Positions 1,941 to 56,902 of a DNA stretch of 64,000 nucleotides are shown here, piece after piece. Origin of the DNA: Desulfobacca sp. 4484_104 (GTDB lineage Bacteria > Desulfobacterota > Desulfobaccia > Desulfobaccales > Desulfobaccaceae); assembly GCA_002049795.1 (NCBI GenBank), contig MUKC01000009.1:6721-70720 (forward strand). The letters run 5' to 3'. A model generated the notes under the pieces. It did not search any database and was not told the DNA's origin. It was given only the letters and a program-made list of their open reading frames with translations. How positions within the stretch are numbered: the stretch's first letter is position 1; the number at the start of each line of letters is the position of its first letter. Position numbers and translations under genes: made by a program.

Positions 1941-1969
1941 TTGACAAAAATCTTTTTTCTCTTTATAAG
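1941..1969 (+). promoter_or_regulatory. Candidate sigma70-type promoter for fhs
   Basis: TTGACA (1941-1946), 17-nt spacer, TATAAG (1964-1969), inside the AT-rich 548-nt divergent cooF/fhs spacer. It implies an fhs leader of about 200 nt. Confidence 0.4.
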
Positions 1970-2175
1970 TGGGAGCAATGTGAAAAAAATAATGAACAGC
2001 GTTTTGAACCATATTGGGGTTGAGCGGCGGGAAAAAGAGTGTAAGGCAGATTCACGGTGACGATATTTTGATCGCTGGGGCGATTTCCTAAGGTTTAGAT
2101 ATTTAAGTTGATCATATAAACAGGGAAACTATTAAGCTCATATTTTAATTAACCTAATCAAAGGAGGCAGTTCTT

Positions 2176-3960
2176 ATGGCGAAGTATGATCCGGTAAAAA
2201 TGAAAGATTGGCAGATTGCCGAAATTGCCGAAGCGGAGATGATTCCCTTTGACGAGATGTGCGAAAAGCTCGAAATTCCCAAAGAGGAGCGCATCCCCTA
2301 TGGCCAAAAAATCGGTCGCGTCGACTACCTGAAATGTCTGGAGCGCTTGAAAGACAAACCCGACGGCAAGTACATCGAAGTCACCGCCATTACTCCCACT
2401 CCCCTGGGGGAAGGCAAATCTACCACTTCCATGGGCCTGATCGAGGGCTTGGGAAAACGGGGCGTCAACGTCGGCGGCTGCATCCGCCAACCCTCCGGCG
2501 GCCCCACCATGAACATCAAGGGCACCGCGGCCGGCGGCGGCATCTCGCTCTTGATCCCCATGACCGAGTTCTCCTTGGGCCTTACTGGCGACATCAACAA
2601 CATCATGAACGCCCACAATCTGGCCATGGTGGCCGCCACTTCCCGGTTGCAGCACGAGTTCAACTACAGCGATGAGCAGTTGGCCAAGCGGAACCTGAAA
2701 CGTCTGGACATCAATCCCAAGAATTTCGAAATGGGCTGGATCATGGACTTCTGCGCCCAGGCCCTGCGCAATATCACCATCGGCCGGGGCGGCAAGATGG
2801 ACGGCTTCTTAATGGATTCCAGATTCGGTATCGCGGTGTCCTCGGAAGTCATGGCCATCCTGTCAGTCTTCACCTCTTTGCCTGACCTCAAAGAACGGCT
2901 AAACAACATCGTGGTGTGCTATGACCGGGCGGGTAACCCGATCACTACCCGTGACCTGGAAGTGGGCAATGCCATGACCGCCTGGATGGTACCCTCCATC
3001 AATCCGACCCTGTGCCAGACGGTGGAGAAGCAGCCCTGCTTCGTGCACGCCGGTCCCTTTGCCAATATTGCCGTAGGACAGTCCTCTATCGTCGCCGACC
3101 AGATCGGGCTGAAGCTCTTCGATTATCATATCACTGAGTCCGGCTTCGGCGCCGACATCGGCTTTGAGAAGTTCTGGAATGTCAAGTGCCGGTTCAGCGG
3201 CCTCACCCCCCATGTCTCGGTGCTCACCACCACCATCCGGGGCCTGAAGCATCATGGGGTCAACGCTGGCGCTCTGCCGTGTCCGCCAGGCAAACCGATT
3301 CCCAAAGAATACTTTGAAGCCACTCCTGCCAACTTCAAATGGCTGGAAGACGGGGCGGAAAACATGGTGCATCACATCCGCACCATTAAAAAATCCGGGA
3401 TCAAACCGGTGGTGTGCATCAATGCTTTCCATTACGATTCCGATGAAGAGCATGCGCTGGTCCGCCGGCTGGCCGAAGCGGAAGGTGCCTATGTGGCGGT
3501 GTCCAAACACTGGCAGTTCGGCGGCGAAGGGGCTTTGGAATTTGCCGACGCCGTTATGGACGCTTGCAAAGAAAAGCCTGATTTTAAATTCCTTTATCCC
3601 AACGACATGCCGCTCCGGAAGCGGGTCGAAACCATCGCTAAGGAAGTGTATGGCGCCGATGGGGTGGATTTCGCTCCCGAAGCCGAAGCCAAAGCCAAGA
3701 AGTTTGAAGCGGATCCCAAGTATAACGAATACGCCACCATGATGGTGAAGACGCACCTGAGTCTTACCCATGATCCGACCGTCAAGGGTACGCCTAAAGG
3801 CTGGAGACTGCCGGTGCGCGACTTCTTGATCTATGGCGGCGCCAAATTCATCTGCCCGGTCTGCGGCGCCATCAGCCTGATGCCTGGTACTGGCTCCGAC
3901 CCGGCCTTCCGGCGGGTGGATGTGGATACCAAAACCGGAAAGGTTATCGGCCTGTTCTAA
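2176..3960 (+). CDS. fhs: Formate--tetrahydrofolate ligase
   Basis: 594 aa. It has the [12 protein letters not shown] nucleotide-binding loop and a family-typical C terminus ([15 protein letters not shown]). GGAGG lies 8 nt upstream of the ATG. Confidence 0.95.
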
Positions 3961-3975
3961 CTGCCAATTGATAAT

Positions 3976-3999
3976 CTCCAGGCCCGCCAGGGCCTGGAG
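3976..3999 (+). terminator. Intrinsic terminator-like hairpin after fhs
   Basis: Perfect 10-bp stem CTCCAGGCCC/GGGCCTGGAG with a GCCA loop, followed by CACTTTTATG. It starts 16 nt after the fhs stop. Confidence 0.5.
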
Positions 4000-4076
4000 C
4001 ACTTTTATGTAAACACAAGAATCAACTTGTTATTTTCACTTATTTATCAGGATAAACTAGACTTACCCTTAGAGTG

Positions 4077-4096
4077 CCGGGGACTTCGGTCCCCGG
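4077..4096 (+). other. Very stable GC-rich stem-loop with a UUCG tetraloop, function unknown
   Basis: CCGGGGAC-TTCG-GTCCCCGG, 8 Watson-Crick pairs. It lies in the 460-nt fhs-nfnA spacer. Confidence 0.5.
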
Positions 4097-4365
4097 TGTA
4101 CATTTCCCAGGGAAACCGGTTAGGCCAGCTCGGCCCGCGGCGGGCTACCAGAGATTACTTGCCTGGTTTAGATCTGCACCCAAGAAATGCCCCGGGGTTT
4201 CTTTATTTAGCTAATTTCCCTCCGAAAAGCTTATATTCTTCCTCGACTTTTATGAGGTGAGGGCCTTACTGCTTTCCGGATAGAAACTAGCTAAATAATC
4301 CGAGCTCAACAGGGTATAAGTGAGCCGAGCCAAATTAAGGAGTTGGTAACCACTGGGCAGTTGTC

Positions 4366-4400
4366 ACTAACAACTAAAACTAACAACCAAGATCCAAGAT
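4366..4400 (+). repeat. A/C-rich heptad-phased tract in the nfnA leader
   Basis: actaaca|actaaaa|ctaacaa|ccaagat|ccaagat, ending 14 nt before the GAAGGAGG ribosome-binding site of nfnA. Confidence 0.5.
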
Positions 4401-4430
4401 ATTTAGACCTCGAGAAGGAGGATGGTATTT

Positions 4431-5258
4431 ATGTTTGAGATAGTTGCCCGAGAAGAAATGGCCGAGGGCACCGTAGTCAGTAACTGGATCCGCGCCCCCA
4501 AAATTGCCCAAAAAGCCAGACCGGGACAGTTCGTGATCCTACGGGCCAATGACACTGGCGAACGTATCCCCCTGACCATGGCGGATACTGACCCAGATAA
4601 GGGTCTGATCAACATCATCTATCAGGTGGTCGGCAAGAGTACTGCCCTCTTTAAAACCCTTCAGGTCGGACAGGGCTTTCAGGATGTCATCGGTCCTTTG
4701 GGGCAGCCCACCCATGTTGAAAAGGTCGGCAAAGTGGTCTGCGTCGGCGGCGGCACCGGAGTGGCGGTGCTGCACCCCATTACCCGGGGTTTAAAACAGG
4801 CCGGCAATCATGTTTTTGCGGTGATCGGGGCCCGCAATAAAGACCTGCTGATCCTGGAAGACCGCATGCGGGATGCCTCCCATGAACTGTTTGTCTGTAC
4901 TGATGACGGCTCTTATGGACATCATGGCTTCGTCACCGATATGCTCAAAAAAATTCTGGATGAGAATAAAGACGTGGGCCTGGCGGTCTGTATCGGACCG
5001 GTGCCGATGATGAAATTCTGCTGCAAGATGACCAAAGAGTACAATGTCAAAACCCTGGTCAGCCTTAATCCGATCATGGTGGATGGCACCGGAATGTGTG
5101 GTTGCTGCCGGGTCACGGTGGGCGGCGAACGCAAGTTTGCGTGCGTCGACGGCCCCGAATTTGACGGCCACCAGGTGGATTTTGAGGAGCTCACGGCACG
5201 ACTGCAATCTTATCTGGAACAGGAAAAGCAGTCCTACGATATTTTTAAAGCCAAATAA
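4431..5258 (+). CDS. nfnA: NADH-dependent reduced ferredoxin:NADP oxidoreductase small subunit (sulfide dehydrogenase beta / FNR-like)
   Basis: It has an FAD/NAD-binding fold (GGGTGVAVLHP) and a C-terminal 2Fe-2S Cys cluster (DGTGMCGCCRV..FACVDGP). The track start at 4422 directly abuts AGGAGG, so the ATG at 4431 (9-nt spacing) is preferred. Confidence 0.8.
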   Translation: MFEIVAREEMAEGTVVSNWIRAPKIAQKARPGQFVILRANDTGERIPLTMADTDPDKGLINIIYQVVGKSTALFKTLQVGQGFQDVIGPLGQPTHVEKVGKVVCVGGGTGVAVLHPITRGLKQAGNHVFAVIGARNKDLLILEDRMRDASHELFVCTDDGSYGHHGFVTDMLKKILDENKDVGLAVCIGPVPMMKFCCKMTKEYNVKTLVSLNPIMVDGTGMCGCCRVTVGGERKFACVDGPEFDGHQVDFEELTARLQSYLEQEKQSYDIFKAK

Positions 5259-5331
5259 GGTTACAGCCACCGCACTGATGGGTATCAGTTTCGAGGGACC
5301 CAGAATCGCCAACGATAGATAAAATCTCTGG

Positions 5332-5359
5332 ACTGAAACTCGAAACTTAGAACTCCAAA
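5332..5359 (+). repeat. Heptad-phased tract in the nfnB leader
   Basis: actgaaa|ctcgaaa|cttagaa|ctccaaa. CTCGAAACT (5339-5347) is the reverse complement of AGTTTCGAG (5287-5295). It shares the 12-mer AAACTCGAAACT with the 49862-49896 tract. Confidence 0.5.
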
Positions 5360-5389
5360 CATGTAGAATTCCCAGGGAGGATAATCATA

Positions 5390-6814
5390 ATGGCGGAAGA
5401 AGAAAAACCCCAAAAGGAAAAAAAAGAGAAAATTCCCCGGCAAAAGATGCCGGAACAGGATCCCCAAGTCCGCCGGCGGAATTTTGATGAGGTTCCCTTA
5501 GGACTTAGCCCGGAGCTGGCCCAACTGGAGGCCAGTCGCTGTCTCCAATGCAAGGACCCCCGCTGCGTCAAAGGCTGCCCGGTGGAAGTCGATATTCCCG
5601 GGTTTATCAAATTAGTGGCTGACGGTGATTATGTCGGCGCGATTCGCAAGATCTGGGAAAAGAATGCCCTGCCTGCGGTCTGTGGCCGGGTCTGTCCTCA
5701 GGAAATCCAATGCGAGGGCATGTGCATTCTGGGCAAAAAAGGTGAGTCCGTGGGGATTGGCAACCTGGAAAGGTTTGCCGCGGATTACCAGCGCCTCTAC
5801 GGTAAACCGGTGCTGCCCCCCAAGGCGGACCCCACCGGTAAGAAAGTGGCCGTGGTGGGCGCCGGTCCCTCGGGGCTGACCGTGGCCGGCGACCTGATCC
5901 TCAAAGGCCATGACGTGACGGTCTATGAGGCCCTCCATGCTCCTGGTGGAGTGCTGGTGTACGGAATTCCTGAGTTCCGGCTGCCCAAAGAGATCGTCGC
6001 CTCAGAATGTAATTACCTGGAACGCCTGGGTGTCAAAATTATTACCAACGCGGTTATTGGCCGGATTGAAACCGTCGACGAACTGTTTGAGCAGGGTTTT
6101 GACGCGGTCTTCCTGGGGGTAGGGGCTGGGTTGCCGATGTTCCTCAATGTCCCGGGCGAAAACCTGATCGGCATCTATTCCGCCAACGAGTATCTCACCC
6201 GGGCCAACCTGATGAAGGCCTATGCCTTCCCGGAATATGATACGCCCATCGTGGTGGGGAAAAATGTGGTGGTCTTTGGGGCCGGAAACGTGGCGATGGA
6301 CTCGGCCCGGGTGGCCATGCGTTTAGGCGCCGATCGGGTGCGGATTGTCTATCGCCGCTCCAGGGCCGAGATGCCGGCCCGGGAAGCCGAGATTCATCAC
6401 GCCGAGGAGGAGGGCATCGAGTTCTTCCTGCTCACCGCGCCGACCAAATTCATCGGCGATGATAAAGGCCGGGTTACCGGGGTGGAATGCCTCAAGATGG
6501 AATTAGGAGAACCGGATGCCTCGGGCCGCCGTCGTCCCGTGCCGATTCCAGGGTCGGAATTTCAGCTGGAGTGTGACCTGGCAGTGATTTCGGTCGGGGC
6601 CGGTGCCAATCCGCTGCTGACCAAGACCACCCCAGGGCTGGCCCTCAATAAATGGGGCTATATCGTCGCTGATCCTAAGACCGGCAAAACCACCAAAAAG
6701 GCGGTTTGGGCCGGAGGCGATATCGTTACGGGTTCGGCTACGGTCATCCTGGCCATGGGTGCCGGACGCATCGCCGCCAACTCCATCCATGACTATCTAA
6801 CCATGGGTTGGTAA
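5390..6814 (+). CDS. nfnB: NfnB / glutamate-synthase-small-chain-like NADPH oxidoreductase (sulfide dehydrogenase alpha)
   Basis: 474 aa. N-terminal 4Fe-4S Cys motifs (CLQCKDPRCVKGCP; CGRVCPQEIQCEGMC) are followed by GAGPSGL and GAGNVAMD dinucleotide-binding motifs. Confidence 0.8.
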   Translation: MAEEEKPQKEKKEKIPRQKMPEQDPQVRRRNFDEVPLGLSPELAQLEASRCLQCKDPRCVKGCPVEVDIPGFIKLVADGDYVGAIRKIWEKNALPAVCGRVCPQEIQCEGMCILGKKGESVGIGNLERFAADYQRLYGKPVLPPKADPTGKKVAVVGAGPSGLTVAGDLILKGHDVTVYEALHAPGGVLVYGIPEFRLPKEIVASECNYLERLGVKIITNAVIGRIETVDELFEQGFDAVFLGVGAGLPMFLNVPGENLIGIYSANEYLTRANLMKAYAFPEYDTPIVVGKNVVVFGAGNVAMDSARVAMRLGADRVRIVYRRSRAEMPAREAEIHHAEEEGIEFFLLTAPTKFIGDDKGRVTGVECLKMELGEPDASGRRRPVPIPGSEFQLECDLAVISVGAGANPLLTKTTPGLALNKWGYIVADPKTGKTTKKAVWAGGDIVTGSATVILAMGAGRIAANSIHDYLTMGW

Positions 6815-9608: not shown

Positions 9609-10198
9609 TTGCCCTGCTGGAAGGAGAATTAGCCTCAAAAGGTTCAGCTCAGGTGATCATCAAGGTCGCGGGAGTGGGCTATCAGGTCTTTATCCCGCTT
9701 TCCACCTTTTATGGCCTGCCCGAGCCGCCGGCTTTAGTTACCCTGCAGATTCATACCTATATGCATGCCGAGGCCCTACAATTATTTGGCTTTCAGACCC
9801 TGGAAGAGAAACAGATTTTCCTCAACTTATTGACCATCCCTCGGGTCGGCCCTCGTACGGCCCTAAATATTTTATCGGGCTTCAACCCCCAGGAACTATC
9901 GGAAGTGCTGGCCCGCGGCGATGTCAAGCGGATGGCCAGTATTCCCGGCGTGGGCCGCCGCTCGGCCGAGCGCATCCTGTTGGAACTAAAAGATAAGCTT
10001 CATCCGGCGCGGCCGCCCTTGCCGCGGGCCGTGCTGCCGCCCCAGGAACGTCTGTTTCAGGATGCTTTATCCGCCCTAGTCAATCTGGGTTATTCCAAAA
10101 ACATTGCCGAAAAGGCCTTAAACGAGGTCCAGGCCCAAGGGGCTGCCCTGACCCTGGAAGAGCTGTTGCGCCAGGGCCTGAAGCGCCTGGCCCCTTGA
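9605..10198 (+). CDS. ruvA: Holliday junction branch migration complex subunit RuvA
   Basis: MIALLEGEL...VGYQVFIP OB-fold start and HhH motifs (IPGVGRRSAERI). There is a 4-nt overlap with ruvC. Confidence 0.9.
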   Translation: MIALLEGELASKGSAQVIIKVAGVGYQVFIPLSTFYGLPEPPALVTLQIHTYMHAEALQLFGFQTLEEKQIFLNLLTIPRVGPRTALNILSGFNPQELSEVLARGDVKRMASIPGVGRRSAERILLELKDKLHPARPPLPRAVLPPQERLFQDALSALVNLGYSKNIAEKALNEVQAQGAALTLEELLRQGLKRLAP

Positions 10199-10289
10199 TA
10201 CCTTGTGATATTTGCGCTCAACTGGAAATCTCAAGTTCCTTTTTGGGGTTGACCGCGACGCAGGCTGACCATGCTTGCCGACCAGGTAG

Positions 10290-11447
10290 TTAGCGTTTCG
10301 GAAAGGATTCCAGGATTTTCTTTACATCCACCGGGATATAGGTGCGGCTGTGACTGGGGCACACCGAAAGCCGCAGAGTATTTAAGTCACAAACCGCGGA
10401 ATAGACCGTATCTTCCCAGACCTGGGCATCGAGCAGGATATCTTCCAGGTCGGCGATTGAGAGTTTGGGTTTGTTTCCAGCCAGGTGGAGGATTCGGTAG
10501 TAACGCCGCCGGGAGCTATCATCGGGCGGTTGGGCAATGGGCCGCAGCGCCGGGGTGATGAGATGATTAGTGCTAATCAATAAATTATATTGGGGTCGGC
10601 GACTGGACCAATGCTGCAGTCCCAGTTCCAGTAAGAGCAGCCGGTGCTCCGGGGCGCTGGCTAACAAAACGTTCCAGGCGTGGAAACGGGGCCATTGGGT
10701 AATCAGACGCTGTAGACGGGTAAGTTTCTCGGCTTCGGCCAGGGCCTGACGCAAGCGAGGTAAAATAAACTGGCCGTTGGTCGGCAAAGGTTCCTCGCTG
10801 AAGCTGCTATTCAGGGCTATTCCCAGCCTGGCCTGATTAAGGCCCATGGTAGGGAGAGGGATGCCGGGCAGGGTCAGGGCGACATAGGGAATACTGCCCG
10901 GCGGGCCATAGGCCAAAAGGATTACCGGCGTGCCCTGCAGATGGGGCCAATCAAGATTGTGGGCGATCAGTTCGTGGCCATTTGAGGACCGGACGGCTTC
11001 CACTGCCAGGGACGTACAGGCCGGATAAAGGATGGCTTCGGCAAAGAAATTGAGGAGATAAATATCTTCCAGTCCGACCCCGGCTCCCTGGGCTATCCCT
11101 TGAAGTTCGGCTACCAGGCTGGAGGGCAGGCGGGCCAGGCCGCCCTGCAGGTAGCGCTGCATCTCGGCCCGGAGGGCTTGCGGGTTCGGGCCTAAGAACT
11201 TTTTTTCCAATACTTGGTGGACCAAGCGCTGAATCTCGACGCCAAACAGCTTCCCATGGATGCGTCCGGATTCGGTTGGACCTCCCCACAGCATCAACAC
11301 CGGCAACTCATAGATCTGAAAAAACCGGTAGTTTGGCTCGTTACCCTGAACTGGCCGGGCCTGAGTACAGGTGATCAGGGTCGCCATTATCAGACTTAGA
11401 ACCAGGTAACGTGACTTCCTGAGCAATATAGCGATTTTCCGGATCAT
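10290..11447 (-). CDS. Peptidase C45 / acyl-CoA:6-APA acyltransferase-like Ntn-hydrolase family protein, probable lipoprotein
   Basis: 385 aa. It has a lipobox-like LITC after a hydrophobic N terminus, and PACTSLAV...HNLDW resembles the C45 nucleophile Cys and NxDW motif. Confidence 0.5.
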   Translation of the reverse strand: MIRKIAILLRKSRYLVLSLIMATLITCTQARPVQGNEPNYRFFQIYELPVLMLWGGPTESGRIHGKLFGVEIQRLVHQVLEKKFLGPNPQALRAEMQRYLQGGLARLPSSLVAELQGIAQGAGVGLEDIYLLNFFAEAILYPACTSLAVEAVRSSNGHELIAHNLDWPHLQGTPVILLAYGPPGSIPYVALTLPGIPLPTMGLNQARLGIALNSSFSEEPLPTNGQFILPRLRQALAEAEKLTRLQRLITQWPRFHAWNVLLASAPEHRLLLLELGLQHWSSRRPQYNLLISTNHLITPALRPIAQPPDDSSRRRYYRILHLAGNKPKLSIADLEDILLDAQVWEDTVYSAVCDLNTLRLSVCPSHSRTYIPVDVKKILESFPKR

Positions 11448-11457
11448 GATTAGTTTC

Positions 11458-12606
11458 TCAGGTGACTTTGGTGTTTCCGGAAGCAGGCGTCTCTACGGGC
11501 AGAAAAAGTCCAAAGGTGGCGCCCAGTCCTGGCAAATTTTCCAGAAATATGTTACCCCGGTGTTCCCACAGGATACGCTCGGCAATGGTTAAATCCATGC
11601 CAATCTTAGCGGGATTAGTGCTGAAAAAGGGATTAAAGATAAACGGCTGATCTTCAGAGCGGATGCCGCCGCCGGTATCTATGACTTCAATCATCAGCCA
11701 GTGGTTGCCTAAGCCGGTGCGCAAGGTCAAAGTGCCACCGTGGGGCATGGCTTCCAAGGCGTTGCGCATCAGGCTGGCCAAGGCCCGACTGATCAGGCGT
11801 CGATCTAGCCGGTGTTGATAATCCAATGGCAAGTTATTTTCAAAAATCAGCCTGACTCCCTGGCTTCGAGCTAACTCCGCAAAAGGCTCGACGGCCTCGG
11901 TCACCACTTCGACGACTTCCTCGGGCAGAAACACCGGTTCGGGTAAGTCACAGAACTCTTGGACCTTTTCCACCAATTTTTCCAAACGCTTGGTGCTGTC
12001 GAGGATCTGCTGGAGATATGATTGCCATTGCTCATCGCTGGGCAGCTTGCGGGCCAGGCGGTGGGCAAAACCACCTATAGTCATTACCGGATTGCGCAAT
12101 TCATGAGCCACTCCCTGGGAAATGCGGGTTAAAGTCATGAGGCGCAAATTGTAAAGACGTCTCATTTCTTCCCCCAGTTTCCGTTCCTGCTCCCGTAGGG
12201 CGCAAAGCTCTGACTGATCGTGAATCAACACCGTTGCGGCCAGCACCTGGCCGGGGTGATCCGGGTCTTCAAGATAGGAGGTAATGAGGAGCAAATGTCT
12301 CTGATTCCCGTCGGGACAGAGGTAAGGAACTTCTTTATAGGCCCGCACCTCCCGGTTCTGGGCAATATCTAGAATAGCCTGATTGAAATCGTCATTTTGA
12401 GGGTATTGCAGCAAGATTTCACCCCAACTTTTATCCTGGACTTCGTGGCGGGCAAATCCCAGGATCCGTTCCGCGGCCGGGTTAAGGTAAATAATTACCC
12501 CTTCCGGACCAATCAGCAGTAATCCCTCTTGCAGACCCTCGAAAATATTACTGGCTACTAATTGCCGGGACCGTTCATCCATCGTGGTTTTTCTCCGTTC
12601 AGGCAA
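11458..12606 (-). CDS. Soluble PAS-domain sensor histidine kinase (no adjacent response regulator)
   Basis: It has a PAS region (GLLLIGPEGVIIYLNPAAERILG), an H-box GVAHELRNP, and HATPase N/G boxes (MRNALEAM, DTGGGI, GLGATF). Confidence 0.8.
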   Translation of the reverse strand: MPERRKTTMDERSRQLVASNIFEGLQEGLLLIGPEGVIIYLNPAAERILGFARHEVQDKSWGEILLQYPQNDDFNQAILDIAQNREVRAYKEVPYLCPDGNQRHLLLITSYLEDPDHPGQVLAATVLIHDQSELCALREQERKLGEEMRRLYNLRLMTLTRISQGVAHELRNPVMTIGGFAHRLARKLPSDEQWQSYLQQILDSTKRLEKLVEKVQEFCDLPEPVFLPEEVVEVVTEAVEPFAELARSQGVRLIFENNLPLDYQHRLDRRLISRALASLMRNALEAMPHGGTLTLRTGLGNHWLMIEVIDTGGGIRSEDQPFIFNPFFSTNPAKIGMDLTIAERILWEHRGNIFLENLPGLGATFGLFLPVETPASGNTKVT

Positions 12607-12660
12607 TTCTTATCACCTTCCCAGGTTAAACAAATTTGATAATGCCGATAGCCGTCAGGC

Positions 12661-13347
12661 TCATGAGCTTGGAGGCCTGACCGCCGAAAAGACTTTATTA
12701 GCAATATAAGGCGTAAAGATCCCGGCCTGAGCGATCAGGAAGGTGGAAAAGGGTCCCAGTTCGGGAACTTCCTGAGTCCGGGCAAACCAATAAGTGGCCG
12801 GGATCAGGATGGCGAAAATCCCGGTAATGATGGCAAACAGGCCAATAAAGGCAATCACCCGGCTGGAACTACTGGCAAATTTGTATCTGACTTCATAGAT
12901 CGGCTCTTGGGTTCCGGTTTTAAAGATCGGCTGGTTATTGGCGTCCCGAAGCAGGATTTTTTCTTCCAGATGCTCGGAGAGGGCTTCACCCAGTTTCCAT
13001 CCTGGATCTTTGCGTAAGGAACGGGCCAGCCAGATCAGGATGATCGCAAAAAACATTATCGGAAACCAGGCCATGACGATATAGAGCCAATTACCCGCAG
13101 GGGGTTCGGTTAAGGTCAAGCCTGCCTGGCCGATTTCCCGGCCCCTGCTCTTAATCGTTATTTCCCCGGATTTTGCCGGACTGGGTACGGTGACCACAAT
13201 GGTGCGTCCATCGGGACTGACGACCCGGGCCTTGGCGACTTCTTGCTTATCCTTACCCACCAGAAAGATAACTTCATTATTACTGGCCTGAAGATCAAAG
13301 GTTCGATCCTGGTTGCTGGTTACTACCAGCAGGCCGCCCGCCGGCAC
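12661..13347 (-). CDS. Hypothetical membrane protein with an N-terminal beta-rich (IPT/TIG-like) segment and about 3 TM helices
   Basis: 228-aa ORF from a GTG start. The start is uncertain because a strong SD plus ATG lies at 13393 in another frame (see findings). Confidence 0.45.
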   Translation of the reverse strand: MPAGGLLVVTSNQDRTFDLQASNNEVIFLVGKDKQEVAKARVVSPDGRTIVVTVPSPAKSGEITIKSRGREIGQAGLTLTEPPAGNWLYIVMAWFPIMFFAIILIWLARSLRKDPGWKLGEALSEHLEEKILLRDANNQPIFKTGTQEPIYEVRYKFASSSSRVIAFIGLFAIITGIFAILIPATYWFARTQEVPELGPFSTFLIAQAGIFTPYIANKVFSAVRPPSS

Positions 13348-17788: not shown

Positions 17789-17863
17789 TGGAGGCGGCAT
17801 CCGGATTCGAACCGGAGAATAACGGTTTTGCAGACCGCTGCCTTGCCACTTGGCTATGCCGCC
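17789..17863 (-). tRNA. tRNA-Cys (GCA)
   Basis: Minus strand: GGCGGCATAGCCAAGTGGCAAGGCAGCGGTCTGCAAAACCGT...GGTTCGAATCCGGATGCCGCCTCCA. It has a 7-bp acceptor stem, a CU-GCA-AA anticodon loop, a TPsiC GGTTCGAATCC and an encoded CCA. Confidence 0.9.
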
Positions 17864-17872
17864 CAAAAAAAA

Positions 17873-17947
<75 letters not shown>

Positions 17948-47242: not shown

Positions 47243-47364
47243 GATACCTTCACAGCTGGAACAGTTAGGTCAGCACAACTATAAGATTATTAAGCTGACA
47301 GAGTAAAATAATGAAAACGGGTTTAGGTCGGTTTACCTAAACCCTGAATAAGTTATTTAATTAT

Positions 47365-47452
47365 TGGTGCCGGAGGCGAGACTCGAACTCGCACAGGCAT
47401 AAAGCCCGGGGGATTTTGAGTCCCCTGCGTCTACCCATTCCACCACTCCGGC
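47365..47452 (-). tRNA. tRNA-Leu (CAA)
   Basis: Minus strand: GCCGGAGTGGTGGAATGGGTAGACGCAGGGGACTCAAAATCCCC + long variable arm + GAGTTCGAGTCTCGCCTCCGGCACCA. It has a CT-CAA-AA anticodon loop. 88 nt. Confidence 0.9.
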
Positions 47453-47540: not shown

Positions 47541-49856
47541 TTATCGGCGACGCCAAACCGGGCCCTGGGGAGTATCAATCACTTCAATGCCCTGTTCGGC
47601 CAGTTCCTGACGGAGTTGATCGGCCTGGGGCCAATCCCGTTGGCGCCGGGCGGCCTCGCGGGCCTGGATTTTAGCGTCGATAGCTGCATCTTGGGCCGTC
47701 TCCGGGAAATTCATGACCCCCAACACCCCATCCAGTTCCTGGAACCGGCCCATGATGGTCTGAGCACCATCCTGGTCGAGACGGTTATGGTCAATCAGCC
47801 CGTGAACCTTATTCAGAAAGCCAAAGATCACCGCCAAGGCCTGAGAAATGTTTAGGTCATCATCCAGGGCCGCGTTAAAATCCTTCTTCAATTTAAACAG
47901 GAGCTGATCCAGGTCCGGGAACCCCCGCCCGGCCGGGAGGTGGCCCAAACGGTCCAGGAAGAAGTCGAGGCGACGGCGGGCCCGCGCCGCGGCGTGGAGG
48001 GCGTCGAGACTGAGCTGGAGGGGCTTGCGATAGTGCGTCGTCATCAGGAAATAACGTATATCCTCCCCCTGAAAGCCCTGCTCCAGAAGTTCCCGCACCG
48101 TACTTAGTTCCTGCCCTTCCTGCAGTTTGCGGCCATCCGAGAGTAGTCGTTCGCTGTGCAGCCAGTGCCGCACCAGCGGTTTGCCAGTGGCGGCGGTACA
48201 GATGGCGGTGACGTTATCATGGTGGGGAAAGATCTGTTCCAAGCCGCCGGTATAGATATCAATGGTATCTCCCAGGTGTTTCAAGGCGATCGCCGCACAT
48301 TCCAGGTGCCAGCCGGGACGGACGTTGCCCCACGCGGTGGCAAAATAAAGGCCGCGTTTCAATTCCCCCAGTTTGGCCCTTTTGAGCAGGGTGAAATCCC
48401 GCGGGTTGTCCTTTTCATACTCGTCCAGATCTACGGTTTTACCGACGCGGATCTTACTCAGATCAATTCGGGAGAGTTTGCCATATTCCTTAAAGCGCGA
48501 AATATCGAAATAAACCGAGCGCAGTTTTTCATAGGCGTAACCGCGATCCATCAACCGGCGGGTCAGGGCCAACATATCATTAATATGCTCAGTAGCCCGC
48601 GCATAGGCCGTAGCTGGCTTTAATCTCAAGGCCGCGAGATCCTTAAATAATTCTTGGGCATAATGCTGGGTGAATTCCGTTAACGGCTTTCCGGCCGCAG
48701 CCGCCCCCTGAATGGTTTTATCGTCCAAATCAATCAGGTTTACCACCTGGCGGATGGCCCAGCCCTGGTATTCCAGGTAACGCCGCAGTAAATCTACCAT
48801 GATCAAGCGCCGCGCCCCCATCAGGGAAAGGTGAGCATTCATAGTGGGGCCATCCGTGTAGACGGTTACTTCTCCCGGCTTCAGGGGAATAAAGGCCTCT
48901 TTCTGACGGCTCAGGGTATTGTAGAAACGCAGCGTCGGCTTTTCTTGCTCGGCAAATAAGGGCGTCGAGAGATAGCGTTCCCCGCCGTCGGGGCAGATGG
49001 CGACAATCAGTCCTTCTTCCTGTTCCTGAGCGAGTTGCAAAGCAATAGCCACCGCCGCCCCTGAGCTCAGGCCCAAAAACATCCCTTCTTCGCGGGCCAG
49101 GCGGCGAGTAGTCGCAAAGGCTACTTCATCCTCAATATTGATGATGGCATCGGCCTGGGTTTTATCAAAAATGCCGGGTTTATAGGATTCCTTCATATTT
49201 TTGAGGCCCTGCAAGCCGTGGCCTAAATAAGGCTCCACCCCGATGATCTTTATCTCCGGGTTCAGCTCTTTCAATCGCCGATAAATGCCCATCAAGGTCC
49301 CGGTCGTCCCCATGGTAATCACTACCGTGGTGACCTGACCTTCGGTCTGCTCCCAGATTTCCTGGGCCGTGCCATAATAGTGCGCCAAGGGGTTGCTGGG
49401 ATTGTTGAACTGATCGGGCAGATAATATTTTTCGGGGTGTTCCCGGACCAGACTATAGACCTTTTCAATAGCGCCGTCAGTGCCTAAAGCCGCCGGAGTT
49501 AAAAGTATTTCCGCTCCCAGGGCCTTAAGGATGAGACGGCGCTCCTGGCTGGCCGATTCCGACATGGCCAGCACCAGGGGGTATCCTTTGACGGCACAGA
49601 CCAGAGCCAGGCCGATGCCGGTATTACCGCTGGTCGCCTCAATAACCGTCTTGCCGGGACTCAATTCCCCCCGGGCCTCGGCATCGTTGATCATGCTCCA
49701 GGCGACCCGATCTTTGATTGACCCGCCAGGGTTGAAACATTCGAGCTTGAGGTAGACTTCCACCCGGGGGTTGGGATTAAGGCGGTTGAGACGGACTAGC
49801 GGGGTGTGGCCGATTAACTCTAACAGGTTATTATAACAGTGGCGCATAAAGGCCAA
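47541..49856 (-). CDS. Fusion protein: CysM/CysK-like PLP cysteine synthase (aa 1-~300) plus cysteinyl-tRNA-synthetase-like domain with degenerate HIGH/KMSKS (aa ~307-771)
   Basis: The N-terminal part has GGSIKDR (PLP Lys), TSGNTG, GTTGT and LSSGAA. The C-terminal part is collinear with CysRS (LRFYNTLSRQKEAF..., GWHLECAAI, FPHHDN, DDDLN, ..DWPQADQLRQELAEQGIEVIDTPQGPVWRRR), but reads DGPTMNAHLSLMG in place of CGxTxYDxxHIGH and RKLQEG in place of KMSKS. The likely start is the ATG at 49847. Confidence 0.8.
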   Translation of the reverse strand: MAFMRHCYNNLLELIGHTPLVRLNRLNPNPRVEVYLKLECFNPGGSIKDRVAWSMINDAEARGELSPGKTVIEATSGNTGIGLALVCAVKGYPLVLAMSESASQERRLILKALGAEILLTPAALGTDGAIEKVYSLVREHPEKYYLPDQFNNPSNPLAHYYGTAQEIWEQTEGQVTTVVITMGTTGTLMGIYRRLKELNPEIKIIGVEPYLGHGLQGLKNMKESYKPGIFDKTQADAIINIEDEVAFATTRRLAREEGMFLGLSSGAAVAIALQLAQEQEEGLIVAICPDGGERYLSTPLFAEQEKPTLRFYNTLSRQKEAFIPLKPGEVTVYTDGPTMNAHLSLMGARRLIMVDLLRRYLEYQGWAIRQVVNLIDLDDKTIQGAAAAGKPLTEFTQHYAQELFKDLAALRLKPATAYARATEHINDMLALTRRLMDRGYAYEKLRSVYFDISRFKEYGKLSRIDLSKIRVGKTVDLDEYEKDNPRDFTLLKRAKLGELKRGLYFATAWGNVRPGWHLECAAIALKHLGDTIDIYTGGLEQIFPHHDNVTAICTAATGKPLVRHWLHSERLLSDGRKLQEGQELSTVRELLEQGFQGEDIRYFLMTTHYRKPLQLSLDALHAAARARRRLDFFLDRLGHLPAGRGFPDLDQLLFKLKKDFNAALDDDLNISQALAVIFGFLNKVHGLIDHNRLDQDGAQTIMGRFQELDGVLGVMNFPETAQDAAIDAKIQAREAARRQRDWPQADQLRQELAEQGIEVIDTPQGPVWRRR

Positions 49857-50008: not shown

Positions 50009-50245
50009 TTAGCACAAAGTGCCAGCCAGGTGCTGATTAACCAATTGGACCACGGAAAGGGTAAAGAGTCGTTGCGCTTCGGGATTGTCATCCAGGGCCT
50101 GCAGTAGGCGGTGCATTAGCGCAATGATTATAGTCCCTGCTTCCTGGGGGTTGATTCCTTCTTCATTAAAACGTGCCAAGATCTCGTTGACCAAAGGGCG
50201 GACTCGTTCCGCCAGCTCAATTTCCGAAGATTGTTCCACATCCAT
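50009..50245 (-). CDS. Hypothetical small acidic helical protein
   Basis: 78-aa ORF with protein-like composition. No motif recognised. Confidence 0.4.
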   Translation of the reverse strand: MDVEQSSEIELAERVRPLVNEILARFNEEGINPQEAGTIIIALMHRLLQALDDNPEAQRLFTLSVVQLVNQHLAGTLC

Positions 50246-52720: not shown

Positions 52721-53233
52721 ATGTCGGTTCATCTCATCATAGACGGTTACAACCTTATTCGCCAATCTCCAGAGTTGCTGGCTTTTGAGGCCCAGGATCT
52801 GCAATCCGGGCGACAGGCCTTGCTGCAGAAACTGGCAGCTTATCGTCAGGTCCGGCCTCATCCTATCACGGTGGTTTTCGATGGCTGGAAGTCCGGGGAG
52901 TTGACCGAGGATCGGGACCGCTATCAAGGCATCCTGATCATCTATTCCCGCCGGGGTGAACCGGCCGATGAGGTAATTAAACGCTTGGCAGTGCGCGAAG
53001 GGATGCGCGCCCTGGTAGTGTCCTCGGATCGGGAAATTCTTGAATACGTTGAACAACATGGCTCTACGGCCATATCCGTCCCCGAATTTGAGTCCCGTTT
53101 ACACCTGGTCGTGGACGGCTACGACGACCTTAATGATGAGGAAGTCGCCATCCGACATACCCGGAAAAAAGGCCCGGCCCATCGCGCCCCCAAAAAGCAA
53201 CGGCGACAGCGGCAAAGGCTGAGGAAAATTTAA
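52721..53233 (+). CDS. NYN-domain protein, YacP/Rae1-like ribonuclease family
   Basis: LIIDGYNLIR start, VVFDG, VVSSDREI and a basic C-terminal tail. 170 aa. Confidence 0.75.
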   Translation: MSVHLIIDGYNLIRQSPELLAFEAQDLQSGRQALLQKLAAYRQVRPHPITVVFDGWKSGELTEDRDRYQGILIIYSRRGEPADEVIKRLAVREGMRALVVSSDREILEYVEQHGSTAISVPEFESRLHLVVDGYDDLNDEEVAIRHTRKKGPAHRAPKKQRRQRQRLRKI

Positions 53234-53291: not shown

Positions 53292-54638
53292 TCAGCTAAT
53301 TTTTTTGTCTAATTGCAGGTGAAGCATGATATTGAGAAGGGCTGTATCCATGGGGGCTAAGCCTTCCCGGCAGAGCTTGACCAAATGACGGATGGTGGCT
53401 TCGGCGGTTGCACCGATGAACCCCTCCTGGGCTCTGACTACCGTGCCCGCCAGAGCCAGGAGTGCGTTTCTGACCGCCGCCATTACCGCGCCGCTGACTT
53501 TCAGGGCGCAGCCGGTTTTGGCGCCGTCACAGATGATCGTGGCCACGGTGGCGAGATGATTGGTAATGCCCCCGCCGATCTGCTCGACGGTGCCGCTCCG
53601 GAGGTAGGTCACGCCCGCCGCTACGCCGGCCCCGCCGGCTACACTGCTGCTGCACAGGGCGCTTAAACGGCCTATCCGGGCGGTGATATAACAGGCCACC
53701 AGATAGCTTAAAGTTACGGCGCGGAGCAGCCGCGGGCGGTCGCCATCCCCGGTAAAATTGCTCGCCGCAACCAGCGGCAGGCTGGCGGCCAGTCCCAGGT
53801 TGCCGCTCCCGGCCAGGGTCATCGCCGGCAGCGTAATCCCAGCCATCCGGGCGTCAATGGCCGCGGCGGTCAGGATTCCGGCCTCAACTGCCAGATCTCG
53901 ATGGATGACTCCCTGGTGTACCAGGCGCTCCAGGGCCTGGCCCACCCCCAGGCCCGGACCGTGTTCCCGGCCATATGCGGCCAACACCTGGTTCATCTCA
54001 ATGCCTTGCTGGATATAAGCCAGGTCATCCGGGTCCAGTCCGTCCAGCAGGCCCACCATCTCATCCAGCGATAGGGAAATCAGCCAGCGCTCCAGTTCCG
54101 CAATGCTCTGATCCGGCTCTGCTGCCCGGCGCAGCAGGGGATGGTTTTCTTGGGACTGGCCATCTAGAGTAAGGGAAACAATATGATCGTGCTGGCCAGT
54201 GATGGTCGCGGCGGCTTTATGGCGTGCAGCGCAAATCACGGTTTGGACATAAAGTCCCACCTGCCCCTCTAAGATGGCTGTCGAGACTTTACCTGTAGTT
54301 AATAACTGTTGGGCCTGTTCTAGGACCGCGGCGTCCACCGTACTAAAAACCTGGAGCTTGAGGTTAGGATCACCGGCTACGGCTCCGAGTGCGGCGGCCA
54401 AACCGATGCCGCCGGCCCCAGCCGTCCCCGGAATAATGACCCCCATGGCGTTTTTGTAAAGATTAGGGTCCATCGTGACTTTAATGCTATCAAAGTCCTT
54501 GCTGGGTAAAAGCGCGGCTGCAGCTGCAGCACTAAGACCGATGGCCGCGGGGTCGGTGCAGCCCAACCCTGGTTCAGTTTCCAATTGGATCAGGGCCTGG
54601 GCTCGATCATGCAACAGGGTTTTGATAGCAAAACTCAC
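53292..54638 (-). CDS. cyuA: L-cysteine desulfidase family protein (UPF0597/YhaM-CyuA-like)
   Basis: GCTDPAAIG, DARMAGITLPAMTLAGSGNLG and ICDGAKTGCALKV motifs as in YhaM. GTG start. 448 aa. Confidence 0.75.
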   Translation of the reverse strand: MSFAIKTLLHDRAQALIQLETEPGLGCTDPAAIGLSAAAAAALLPSKDFDSIKVTMDPNLYKNAMGVIIPGTAGAGGIGLAAALGAVAGDPNLKLQVFSTVDAAVLEQAQQLLTTGKVSTAILEGQVGLYVQTVICAARHKAAATITGQHDHIVSLTLDGQSQENHPLLRRAAEPDQSIAELERWLISLSLDEMVGLLDGLDPDDLAYIQQGIEMNQVLAAYGREHGPGLGVGQALERLVHQGVIHRDLAVEAGILTAAAIDARMAGITLPAMTLAGSGNLGLAASLPLVAASNFTGDGDRPRLLRAVTLSYLVACYITARIGRLSALCSSSVAGGAGVAAGVTYLRSGTVEQIGGGITNHLATVATIICDGAKTGCALKVSGAVMAAVRNALLALAGTVVRAQEGFIGATAEATIRHLVKLCREGLAPMDTALLNIMLHLQLDKKIS

Positions 54639-54955: not shown

Positions 54956-55408
54956 ATGCTGATAGTTAATAACTCTGATCCTCACAAATCCAAATCGGGT
55001 TATCGTCTGATAGCTCATAGCGCGGATTTGGGCTTCCGACTGTATGGCGAGAGTCTGGCTGATATTTTTGTCAATGCTGCCCACGCCTTGTACGGGGTCA
55101 TGACCGATCGCCGTAAAATCCGGGGCTTAGAGTGCCGAGAGGTAGTGGTTGAGGCCCCCGATGTGGGAGACCTGCTGGTAGAGTGGCTCAATCAGTTATT
55201 ATATCTTTTTGATGCTACCGGCTTTCTGGGACGAGACATAGAGGTTCAGGAGATCACTTCTCAGCGGCTTCAGGCCAGGCTGCGGGGGGAACCTTTAGAT
55301 GAGGAACGCCATCAACTCAACACCGGCATTAAGGCGGCAACCTATCATAACCTGGAGTTCAAGGAGACCGCCGACGGTTGGCAGGCTAAAATTATTCTCG
55401 ATATTTAG
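54956..55408 (+). CDS. Archease (RtcB activator)
   Basis: YRLIAHSADLGFRLYGESLADIF..IKAATYHNLEF is archease-like. It lies directly upstream of rtcB. Confidence 0.8.
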   Translation: MLIVNNSDPHKSKSGYRLIAHSADLGFRLYGESLADIFVNAAHALYGVMTDRRKIRGLECREVVVEAPDVGDLLVEWLNQLLYLFDATGFLGRDIEVQEITSQRLQARLRGEPLDEERHQLNTGIKAATYHNLEFKETADGWQAKIILDI

Positions 55409-55444
55409 ATAAGTTGACTTAAGCACAGCTGCGTTTAATAAATT

Positions 55445-56902
55445 ATGAAGTCAAAACCAGCCGATATTCAGTTGCGCCGCCTGGATGACTACCGCTGGGA
55501 AGTCCCTCAGACCGGTAAGATGCGGACTCGCGGGTTAATTTACGCCACCCGGGACATGTTGCCGGATATACGTTCAGACCAGAGCATCCAGCAGGTGGCC
55601 AATGTCGCGACCCTGCCGGGTATCGAAGGCGCGTCCATGGCCATGCCGGATATCCATTGGGGCTATGGCTTCCCGATCGGCGGGGTAGCGGCTTTTAATC
55701 TGACTGAGGGTGTGATTTCTCCTGGCGGTGTGGGCTATGATATCAATTGCGGCGTTCGGTTGTTGCGTTCCAATCTGTCGCGGCCGGAGGCTGAACCGAT
55801 CCTGGAAGATTTAGTCAATGCCTTATTCCGTAATATTCCTTCCGGCTTAGGCTCGCGCCGCAAGGATTTAAAGCTGACGACCCCGATGTTGCGGCAGGTA
55901 TTGCGCCTGGGTGCAGCTTGGGCCGTGAAAAACGGCTTTGGCACTGCTGACGACCTGTTACATATTGAAGCCGGGGGTCAGATTCCGGGAGCCGATGCCG
56001 ACCTGGTCTCTGATAAAGCCCTGGACCGGGGGCATGATCAGTTGGGCACCCTGGGCTCCGGCAACCATTTTGTGGAAGTGGGGTATGTTCAAGAAATTTT
56101 TGATGAAGCCATAGCCCATGCCTTTGGACTGTTTCCCCAGCAAATTACGGTAATCATCCATACCGGTTCCAGGGGACTGGGACACCAAGTTTGTGATGAT
56201 TATATTAAGATTATGATGAAAGCCGCTGCCAAATATAACATTGAATTAGCGGATCGACAACTCTGTTGTGCCCCGATTACGTCGCCAGAAGGTGAGCAAT
56301 ACCTGGCGGCAATGGCCGCGGCAGCTAATTTTGCCTTTGCCAATCGGCAGTTGATCACGCATTGGGTGCGGGAATCCTTTGAACAGGTGTGGCCGGCCGG
56401 TCCCCGGGCCCTGGGTCTGGAACTGATCTATGATGTCGCCCATAATATGGCCAAAATTGAAACTCATACGATTAACCAAGTAACCCAAAAGGTCTGCGTG
56501 CATCGCAAAGGAGCGACCCGGGCCTTTGCGCCGCACCACCCCGAGGTTCCGGAGGCCTATCGGGAGGTCGGTCAACCGGTGCTGATTCCCGGCGATATGG
56601 GACGGTATTCGTACGTTCTGGTAGGGACTCCGCAAGCCATGGTAGAGACCTTTGGCAGCACTTGCCATGGGGCCGGTCGCCTTCTCAGCCGCCATCAGGC
56701 CCTAAAGGCCGCTAAAGGCCGGTCGATCCTCCAGGAATTGGCTGCCAAAGGCATCGTGGTGCGAGGCGCCAGTCGCGGCACCATTGCCGAAGAAATACCG
56801 GAGGCCTATAAAGATGTGGATAATGTGGTGGAGGTGGTCGAGGGGGCCGGGATCAGTCGCAAAGTGGCCAAACTCCATCCCCTGGGAGTAATTAAGGGCT
56901 AG
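55445..56902 (+). CDS. rtcB: RNA-splicing ligase RtcB
   Basis: GYDINCGVRLL, GSGNHF, HTGSRGLGHQV and STCHGAGR motifs. 485 aa. Confidence 0.93.
   Translation: MKSKPADIQLRRLDDYRWEVPQTGKMRTRGLIYATRDMLPDIRSDQSIQQVANVATLPGIEGASMAMPDIHWGYGFPIGGVAAFNLTEGVISPGGVGYDINCGVRLLRSNLSRPEAEPILEDLVNALFRNIPSGLGSRRKDLKLTTPMLRQVLRLGAAWAVKNGFGTADDLLHIEAGGQIPGADADLVSDKALDRGHDQLGTLGSGNHFVEVGYVQEIFDEAIAHAFGLFPQQITVIIHTGSRGLGHQVCDDYIKIMMKAAAKYNIELADRQLCCAPITSPEGEQYLAAMAAAANFAFANRQLITHWVRESFEQVWPAGPRALGLELIYDVAHNMAKIETHTINQVTQKVCVHRKGATRAFAPHHPEVPEAYREVGQPVLIPGDMGRYSYVLVGTPQAMVETFGSTCHGAGRLLSRHQALKAAKGRSILQELAAKGIVVRGASRGTIAEEIPEAYKDVDNVVEVVEGAGISRKVAKLHPLGVIKG

Follow-up and report, generated by a model that had tools for sequence, protein, structure and literature searches.

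What role can be played by a protein in which a cysteine synthase is joined to the body of a cysteinyl-tRNA synthetase (CysRS) whose adenylation motifs have gone? The question is raised by a gene on the minus strand of a stretch of 64,000 nucleotides of contig MUKC01000009.1 from Desulfobacca sp. 4484_104 (the whole stretch is hereafter called the window). The N-terminal half of its product carries the motifs of a pyridoxal phosphate (PLP)-dependent cysteine synthase, and the C-terminal half is a CysRS-like body that ends in a well-kept anticodon-binding domain. The reading that we favour, tentatively and at somewhat less than an even chance, is that of an active cysteine synthase with a pseudo-CysRS attached that binds tRNA(Cys) without adenylation, by which cysteine synthesis would be coupled to tRNA(Cys) status.

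A cysteine synthase and a CysRS-like body in one reading frame

The original prediction of one uninterrupted 771-codon reading frame, for which no strand had been given, was borne out on the minus strand: a single unbroken open reading frame (ORF) was listed at 47541..49856, with 771 codons counted from a TTG, and the plus-strand reading of 47541-49856 is riddled with stops. The true start of the gene is probably the ATG at 49847 (residue M4 of the ORF): an AGGA stands 10 nt before it, while no spacing separates the same AGGA from the TTG at 49856. So delimited, the fusion gene (47541..49847) encodes 768 aa plus stop and is identical to the database protein P0001 of Desulfobacca sp. 4484_104, which has 768 aa from M4 and 100% identity to the window protein.

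Pfam profiles laid out the domains along the minus strand (residues in the 771-codon numbering). The PALP domain of fold-type II PLP cysteine synthases occupies 48987..49820 (residues 13-290, E 1.7e-73). It is followed at 48933..48986 by the end of the PLP domain, ERYLSTPLF, and the short linker AEQEKPT, which runs into the first CysRS strand LRFYNTL (48912-48932), so that about 10 residues link the PLP domain and the CysRS-like body. The Rossmann fold, connective peptide (CP) and stem-contact (SC) fold of this body were matched by tRNA-synt_1e at 47988..48890 (residues 323-623, E 2.3e-75), the helical bundle by DALR_2 at 47712..47879 (residues 660-715) and the alpha/beta anticodon-binding domain by CysS_C at 47550..47690 (residues 723-769, E = 3.4e-7). 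The three profiles proposed beforehand as a check (PF00291, PF01406 and DALR_2) thus all matched, with CysS_C in addition, and the matches far exceed what chance would give.

A joining of adjacent cysM and cysS genes by a frameshift or an assembly error, the artefact against which the original prediction had to be checked, is ruled out by the conservation of the fusion junction: junction and length (about 765-790 aa) are repeated in >360 independently assembled sequences. The fusion is also found on 3.3-4.2 Mb contigs of cultured species that are taken as complete genomes (D. acetoxidans CP002629, Desulfovibrio ferrophilus and Desulfofustis limnaeus), and the motif losses described below are clade-wide. 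The chance that two ordinary genes have been merged is negligible.

In the PLP half, alignment to E. coli CysM located each of the motifs that had been read from the sequence: the PLP-lysine motif GGSIKDR (49707-49727), the asparagine loop TSGNTG (49617-49634), the glycine-rich phosphate loop GTTGT (49296-49310) and LSSGAA (49053-49070), whose serine faces the pyridine nitrogen, all on the minus strand. The PLP lysine, TSGNTG, GT[TS]GT and the SSG serine are invariant across 126 fusions, which suggests that the synthase is active, with a free amino acid as its substrate. In CysK and CysM, the TSGNTG loop clamps the free alpha-carboxylate of the substrate. Since this carboxylate-binding loop is invariant, the substrate of the synthase would be a free amino acid and not an aminoacyl-tRNA ester. 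We propose that the N-terminal half is a competent CysM/CysK-type O-acetyl- or O-phospho-serine sulfhydrylase acting on such a substrate.

The original remark that a segment of this domain resembles CysM more than CysK is reasonable. The cysKM model TIGR01136 was passed (371.9, cut-off 344.15), and the PLP half of an AlphaFold2 (AF2) model had E. coli CysM 2bhs as its best structural match in Foldseek (template modelling (TM) score 0.95-0.96, root-mean-square deviation 1.7 Å). The score for the cysM equivalog TIGR01138, however, stayed below the cut-off (371.5 vs 394.2), as did that for PRK11761 (339.4 vs 413). By profile scores, the PLP domain is therefore classed as CysM-like without being a CysM equivalog. 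The AF2 model was built from a 126-sequence alignment and reached a mean predicted local distance difference test (pLDDT) of 89.3. Its lowest-confidence segment (pLDDT 52-67) is the loop QGLKNMKESYKPGIF at residues 216-230 (49167-49211, minus strand), despite the invariance of the pattern QGLKNMKESY.PGIF in the 126 fusions. This loop is a candidate contact or gating element, and its basic LKNM stretch is suggestive as to the substrate or sulfur donor of the synthase.

Loss and retention in the CysRS-like half

The CysRS-like half was aligned residue by residue to E. coli CysRS (1li5), whose numbering is used throughout. As had been predicted, the alignment is collinear with the class I enzyme to the extreme C terminus, from L2 to the last residue. 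Every motif change that had been read by eye was found again: C28 is Asp in YTDGPT (48843-48860), HIGH is SLMG (48810-48827), T68 is Ile and KIIK is KTIQ (48708-48740), HHENE is HHDNV with E238 replaced by Val (48210-48230), and KMSKS, with its catalytic second lysine, is KLQEG (48114-48128), all on the minus strand; PGWHLEC is kept (48297-48317). A careful alignment thus shows both HIGH and KMSKS replaced. W205, H206, C209 and H234 are retained, and the zinc-ligand positions C28/C209/H234/E238 read D/C/H/V, which together with Ile at position 68 departs from the canonical set. With the adenylation machinery lost, formation of Cys-AMP and normal charging of tRNA would not be possible for this pseudo-CysRS. 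Membership in the MshC family of CysRS relatives is ruled out by a profile score of 160 against a cut-off of 485.1.

Retention was measured at positions where 76 canonical CysRS agree in at least 85% of the sequences, as the share of canonical residues kept in the clade that has Asp at position 28 (the D28 clade). All canonical invariants of the anticodon-binding domain (R423, A426, D436, R439, G446, D451 and G455) are kept (7/7 positions, 100%), followed by 77% in the CP domain, 69% in the second and 64% in the first Rossmann half, and 51% in the SC-fold with KMSKS. In Foldseek, the AF2 model superposed on CysRS structures with TM 0.83-0.92, including TM 0.83 over 482 columns to the CysRS chain of the CysRS-tRNA(Cys) complex 1u0b. 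The C-terminal half may be described as a pseudo-CysRS with the whole fold and the anticodon domain kept, HIGH and KMSKS gone, and part of the zinc/cysteine pocket gone in the D28 clade.

The state of the clade was followed in the closest homologues, the 120 best database matches, which are all full-length fusions of Desulfobacca/Desulfobaccales with 63-100% identity and include that of D. acetoxidans CP002629 (a 3.28-Mb contig, taken as a complete genome). Position 28 is Asp in 117/120, and the losses of the histidine at HIGH position 37 and of KMSKS are fixed in 120/120, with 0/120 exceptions. G29, R42, D69, W205, H206, H234 and N237 are invariant in the same set. Comparison of the window gene with that of a 95%-identical relative (L004) gave a ratio of nonsynonymous to synonymous substitution rates (dN/dS) of 0.041 in the PLP half and of 0.106 in the CysRS-like half. 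Purifying selection acts on the latter, and the gene is not in decay: the losses are shared by 120/120 homologues, dN/dS is 0.11 and 7/7 anticodon-domain invariants are kept. Two features of regulatory pseudo-synthetase modules are seen, namely catalytic motifs gone under purifying selection and a covalent tie to an enzyme of the same pathway in >360 sequences. Taken together, the fixation in 120 homologues, the invariance of the PLP motifs in 126 fusions, the anticodon-domain invariants and dN/dS support the core of the original prediction, an intact sulfhydrylase joined to a CysRS body without adenylation signatures whose tRNA(Cys)-recognition end is kept.

Two explanations in which no RNA is bound have to be weighed against these data. 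The dead half could be a relic scaffold of an ancestral bifunctional enzyme, whose synthetase activity was lost after a stand-alone CysRS took over and which now serves folding, dimer packing or stability. Such an origin would fit the graded motif decay in the family (KMSRS, then KVDEQ, then complete loss in the window protein), the stepwise fall of the scores for the cysS equivalog TIGR00435 from 553 for canonical CysRS over 451, 416 and 395 for less decayed fusions to 347 for the window protein, and the CysRS-like half evolving about 2.5 times faster than the PLP half. A mere scaffold would, however, hardly be constrained as strongly as a dN/dS of 0.11 indicates, some 470 residues are retained across the whole order and beyond, and the best-kept residues are those of the anticodon domain (7/7, 100%), with the active-site region remodelled. 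We consider a scaffold unlikely.

In the second of these explanations, the CysRS-like pocket would capture newly made cysteine or persulfide without tRNA, either for feedback or for passage to a small protein encoded upstream or to the canonical CysRS, by which free cysteine would be kept low. Most of the wider family keeps the four Zn ligands, T68 and W205 though KMSKS is lost; the linker is short, and the small gene is conserved as a partner gene in Desulfobaccales. In the clade of the window protein, by contrast, Asp stands at position 28, 79% of the members have Ile at position 68, about 20% have Ser in place of C209, and the window's own subclade has Val in place of E238, so that a thiolate-Zn site is unlikely to work there. 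Capture would also leave the perfect retention of the anticodon domain unexplained, and we regard it as distinctly unlikely.

A role in tRNA-dependent chemistry had been offered in the original prediction by analogy with SepCysS. The arm would hold O-phosphoseryl (Sep)-, Ser- or Cys-tRNA(Cys), on which the PLP domain would make cysteine or cysteine persulfide, or the PLP domain would make Cys-SSH that is then loaded on tRNA. The kept tRNA-recognition end agrees with such a reaction, which needs no ATP; PLP enzymes acting on Sep-tRNA(Cys) are a precedent (PMC5424206, PMC8762117), and CARS was reported to make cysteine persulfide (PMC5660078). The invariant TSGNTG of the 126 fusions argues against it, as we would expect an ester substrate to reshape this loop, and SepCysS, SepSecS and SelA are fold-type I enzymes, whereas the domain found here is of fold-type II. 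No SepRS was seen among the Pfam-annotated genes, which were the ten flanking the fusion in the window and those of the fetched loci and in which no search aimed at SepRS was made, and Desulfobaccales are not listed in the papers on bacterial SepRS. The Zn/thiolate pocket for the cysteine moiety is eroded in the window clade. Of the lysines needed by the cysteine persulfide synthase (CPERS), K76 and K269 are lost in the window protein, and most of the clade has lost K73 and K266 (Arg replaces K73 in 93% and Pro replaces K266 in 67% of the D28 clade; K269 is present in 1% of it and in 3% of the other fusions). The SepCysS-like hypothesis is disfavoured by these observations, and tRNA-dependent chemistry as a whole seems quite improbable. 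Loss of the required lysines also rules out that the protein is a CPERS.

The fusion family, tRNA(Cys) charging and the neighbouring genes

The survey of phyletic distribution suggested in the original prediction revealed that the fusion is not a one-off. Full-length CysRS domains were gathered by similarity to the window protein, which makes the collection a sample and not a census. Among the 512 that were classified, 361 belong to PALP-CysRS fusions, mostly of Desulfobacterota, and 360/361 have no second KMSKS lysine. The one fusion with this lysine is from the metagenome-assembled genome (MAG) of a nanoarchaeon (Nanoarchaeota), 59/361 are of KMSRS type, 178/361 keep C28 and have lost the HIGH histidine and/or KMSKS (e.g. 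NLSHCR...KMSAE and HLGECR...KVDEQ), and 123/361, including the window protein, form the C28->D branch. Two more homologue searches and a scan of species-representative genomes gave nothing but fusions, from Desulfobulbia, Desulfobacterales, Ca. Desulfofervidaceae, Thermosulfuriphilus and others. Representatives of 50%-identity clusters added further distant fusions, some with intact-looking motifs and others decayed differently (e.g. that of Desulfovibrio ferrophilus).

A neighbour-joining tree separates canonical CysRS from a single clade that unites all fusions with a group of stand-alone KMSRS proteins (Myxococcota-type); the D28 branch lies inside this clade. The fusion family is further set off by substitutions at canonical invariant positions (R168T, W184L, W194Y, G201V, S210A and Q241L). 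The branch of the window protein shows the furthest decay within a very large, monophyletic, Desulfobacterota-wide fusion family.

Several members of the collection deserve separate mention. The 768-aa nanoarchaeal fusion (P0124) has canonical HIGN, KMSKS and Zn ligands and is the sole sampled fusion that looks truly bifunctional. P0135 and its relatives are stand-alone CysRS-like proteins of 468 aa with H[IV]GLIR, HNENE and KMSRS, nested in the fusion clade; the few named members among these relatives come from MAGs of Polyangia or Deltaproteobacteria. The group may have arisen from a fusion by loss of the PLP domain, or it may be a second family of paralogues. Three Desulfobacterales-type MAGs have two separate fusion loci each (L013 and L016, L022 and L047, L035 and L051), which may reflect paralogy or bins of mixed strains. 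In public records, the same architecture is named either 'cysteine--tRNA ligase' or 'cysteine synthase' (P0001, P0029, P0038, P0125 and P0500). The original prediction knew of no described function for the arrangement. In the literature searched, neither a fusion of cysteine synthase with CysRS nor this pseudo-synthetase is described; in a survey of class I aminoacyl-tRNA synthetase (aaRS)-like proteins, only MshC is mentioned (Aravind 2010). The fusion family is apparently undescribed.

If the fusion cannot charge tRNA(Cys), another enzyme has to. Because a cell cannot do without charged tRNA(Cys) and none of the adenylation signatures is left in the fusion, a separate charging route is to be inferred in this genome, and we assume that housekeeping charging would be done by a separate canonical CysRS. 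A partly decayed fusion and a fully canonical cysS were found 6-7 kb apart on each of two related contigs, a Thermodesulfobacteriota MAG and a 340-kb Joint Genome Institute (JGI) metagenome contig. On L032, a fusion with KMSQA (4037-5410) accompanies a canonical cysS with HVGHAR/KMSKS and 553 bits (11866-13326); on L093, a fusion with KMSWT (1946-4249) accompanies a canonical cysS (10001-11461). Members of the family thus coexist with the housekeeping enzyme. The window itself encodes a tRNA-Cys(GCA) at 17789..17863 (minus strand) with U73, G15 and an encoded CCA, 30 kb from the fusion and unlinked to it; GCA, U73 and G15 are the identity elements of tRNA(Cys) (PMC9976931). Presumably, the pseudo-synthetase has this tRNA as its RNA ligand. 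A tRNA-Gly(GCC) stands in tandem with it (17789-17947, minus strand).

The database name of several members implies that the protein is still a working CysRS with non-canonical catalytic residues. The score of the window protein for TIGR00435, 346.9, lies just over the cut-off of 340 (canonical CysRS, 553.5), several members are named cysteine--tRNA ligase by NCBI and UniRef, and the canonical cysS of this genome is a presumed one. On the other side, HIGH, KMSKS, C28, T68 and E238 are all replaced, and an engineered C28D exchange alone is reported to attenuate strongly the translation activity of E. coli CysRS (PMC5660078). Related fusions share a contig with canonical cysS, as on L032 and L093, and newer NCBI annotations name members 'cysteine synthase'. 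That the window protein charges tRNA(Cys) is very improbable.

Directly upstream of the fusion, at 50009..50245 on the minus strand, lies the gene of a 78-aa protein with an AAGGA ribosome-binding site. Homologues of 89-99 aa with 43-49% identity occupy the same place in every Desulfobaccales locus examined, where the other neighbours differ; the 79 other fusion loci that the genome scan gave (L005-L083) have no such ORF, and neither has L003. Compared with the close relative L004, 7/7 nucleotide differences in it are synonymous or in the stop codon. A single-sequence AF2 model showed a three-helix bundle (pLDDT 77), and no match was found in Pfam, NCBIfam, PDB sequences or Foldseek. A sulfur carrier of the CysO/ThiS type is ruled out, as the protein has no GG terminus, beta-grasp fold or conserved Cys. 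The small helical protein is likely a partner or adaptor of the fusion in Desulfobaccales.

On the other side of the fusion, 88 nt downstream of its stop, a tRNA-Leu(CAA) (47365..47452, minus strand) is followed by a terminator-like hairpin (47319-47344, minus strand; 10-bp GC-rich stem and T-run), the only strong one. This arrangement was seen in this genome only and not at the other fusion loci. Small ORF, fusion and tRNA-Leu may form one transcript. Rfam detected tRNAs only, and no riboswitch or leader upstream of the fusion. Also nearby are a gene for a YacP-like NYN ribonuclease (52721-53233, plus strand), whose Bacillus homologue is part of the cysS operon, a 448-aa protein with an SDH_alpha (serine-dehydratase-alpha) domain and no NCBIfam match (53292-54638, minus strand) and an archease-RtcB RNA ligase pair (54956-56902, plus strand), all of them without an established link to the fusion. 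In Desulfobacterales, fusions lie in a conserved cluster of surE, a yhaM-like exoribonuclease gene, tmk, the fusion and a gene for a 338-aa protein (e.g. L080:2597-3613, L058:8455-9096, L065:6632-7612 and L050:7672-8439). The 338-aa protein was seen at 49 loci and matched no Pfam, NCBIfam or PDB family. The surE-yhaM-tmk context is housekeeping and uninformative on the fusion.

A putative tRNA(Cys)-binding arm and its known counterparts

We therefore return to the reading of a synthase tethered to a pseudo-CysRS. The pseudo-synthetase arm would bind tRNA(Cys), and in less decayed relatives with an intact Zn pocket it may bind cysteine too. It would signal to the fused synthase, so that cysteine output would track the demand for tRNA(Cys) or its charging state, with the small helical protein as a likely partner or adaptor in Desulfobaccales. 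Control of this kind would be useful in sulfidogenic bacteria, in which sulfide never runs short and free cysteine is toxic. In a more specific version, which is somewhat unlikely, the synthase would be switched by the dead CysRS arm according to how abundant or how charged tRNA(Cys) is, and the small protein would serve as a co-factor in Desulfobaccales.

Several points weigh against a coupling to tRNA(Cys). The further erosion of the Zn ligands in part of the clade makes cysteine sensing by the CysRS-like arm doubtful here. The predicted TM score of the AF2 model is 0.61, at which no inter-domain geometry or communication path can be read. Neither a canonical cysS nor SepRS or SepCysS was found in Desulfobacca, of whose genome the 64-kb window was covered, and the window has no CysRS homologue besides the fusion. 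In the Desulfobaccales neighbourhood, nothing beyond the small ORF is conserved, so that it gives no pathway clue. We know of no RNA that acts as an allosteric regulator of a CysK/CysM enzyme, and that the retained C-terminal residues are anticodon contacts is assumed from the 1U0B structure. What the data show are the architecture, the motif losses with their fixation in the clade, purifying selection, the kept anticodon-domain invariants, the membership in the family and the company of a canonical cysS on two related contigs; binding of tRNA, regulatory coupling, the role of the small protein and a canonical cysS in this genome are inferences.

The fusion is present in hundreds of genomes of sulfate reducers, sulfur disproportionators and relatives of cable bacteria, where it is labelled cysteine--tRNA ligase or plain cysteine synthase. 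If it cannot charge tRNA, these annotations are wrong, as are the metabolic and aaRS inventories that depend on them. It would be the first class I pseudo-synthetase covalently tied to the maker of its own amino acid and a test case for the re-use of a tRNA-binding scaffold after catalysis is lost, and it may show how cysteine synthesis is held back in organisms bathed in sulfide. The series from KMSRS over KVDEQ to complete loss offers a natural experiment in how the active site of an aaRS decays step by step while its RNA-binding end persists. If the enzyme is indeed gated by tRNA, cysteine supply would be set directly by translational demand, in a bacterial single-polypeptide counterpart of the logic of GCN2 and HisZ that would be widespread in Desulfobacterota and masked by the label 'cysteine--tRNA ligase'.

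Comparison with known systems places the fusion among several partial counterparts. The less decayed fusions of Desulfobulbia, Desulfobacterales and Ca. Desulfofervidaceae, which are annotated 'cysteine--tRNA ligase', share with the window protein the architecture, the junction, the clade, the QGLKNMKESY.PGIF loop and the missing second KMSKS lysine. Unlike the window protein, they keep C28, T68 and usually the four Zn ligands, and some still have the first HIGH histidine, with KMSRS in place of KMSKS; the small upstream gene is missing from their loci, and in Desulfobacterales they lie in the surE-yhaM-tmk context. Canonical E. coli CysRS (1li5/1u0b) is collinear with the fusion through the Rossmann fold, CP, SC-fold, helical bundle and anticodon domain and shares W205, H206 and H234; the fusion differs from it by the replacement of HIGH, KMSKS, C28, T68 and E238, by family-specific substitutions and by its N-terminal PLP enzyme.

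MshC, the Cys:GlcN-Ins ligase, is likewise a CysRS-derived paralogue with a non-translational role, but it adenylates cysteine, keeps the class I motifs and has no tRNA anticodon domain. The persulfide synthase activity of CARS also combines CysRS, PLP and sulfur chemistry, and the natural C28D of the fusion corresponds to the mutant that separates the two activities of CARS (PMC5660078). That activity needs K73, K76, K266 and K269, whereas in the fusion K76 is Gln and K269 is Glu (KTIQ, KLQEG) and PLP belongs to a genuine fold-type II domain. The SepRS-SepCysS(-SepCysE) system resembles the proposed role in tying cysteine formation to tRNA(Cys) and in having a small helical adaptor (SepCysE/SepCysSn); it differs in using the class II SepRS and a fold-type I PLP enzyme on Sep-tRNA, and the small protein encoded upstream of the fusion is without detectable similarity to anything known.

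The logic of the proposed coupling would be that of HisZ or of the HisRS-like domain of GCN2. HisZ is, like the CysRS-like half, a synthetase paralogue without aminoacylation that is physically tied to a biosynthetic enzyme of the same amino acid. It is, however, a separate subunit of ATP phosphoribosyltransferase, of class II, without an anticodon-binding domain, and a histidine sensor, whereas the fusion is of class I, covalent and with the anticodon domain kept, and its ligand is putative. In GCN2, a dead synthetase-like domain is likewise fused to an effector enzyme and reads the charging state of tRNA; in this eukaryotic protein, many uncharged tRNAs are bound and a kinase is controlled, whereas the fusion would, by hypothesis, respond to one tRNA species and govern a metabolic enzyme. 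Pseudo-synthetase paralogues tied to amino-acid metabolism are thus known from HisZ and GCN2, and what is new here is the class I, fused form that retains its anticodon domain.

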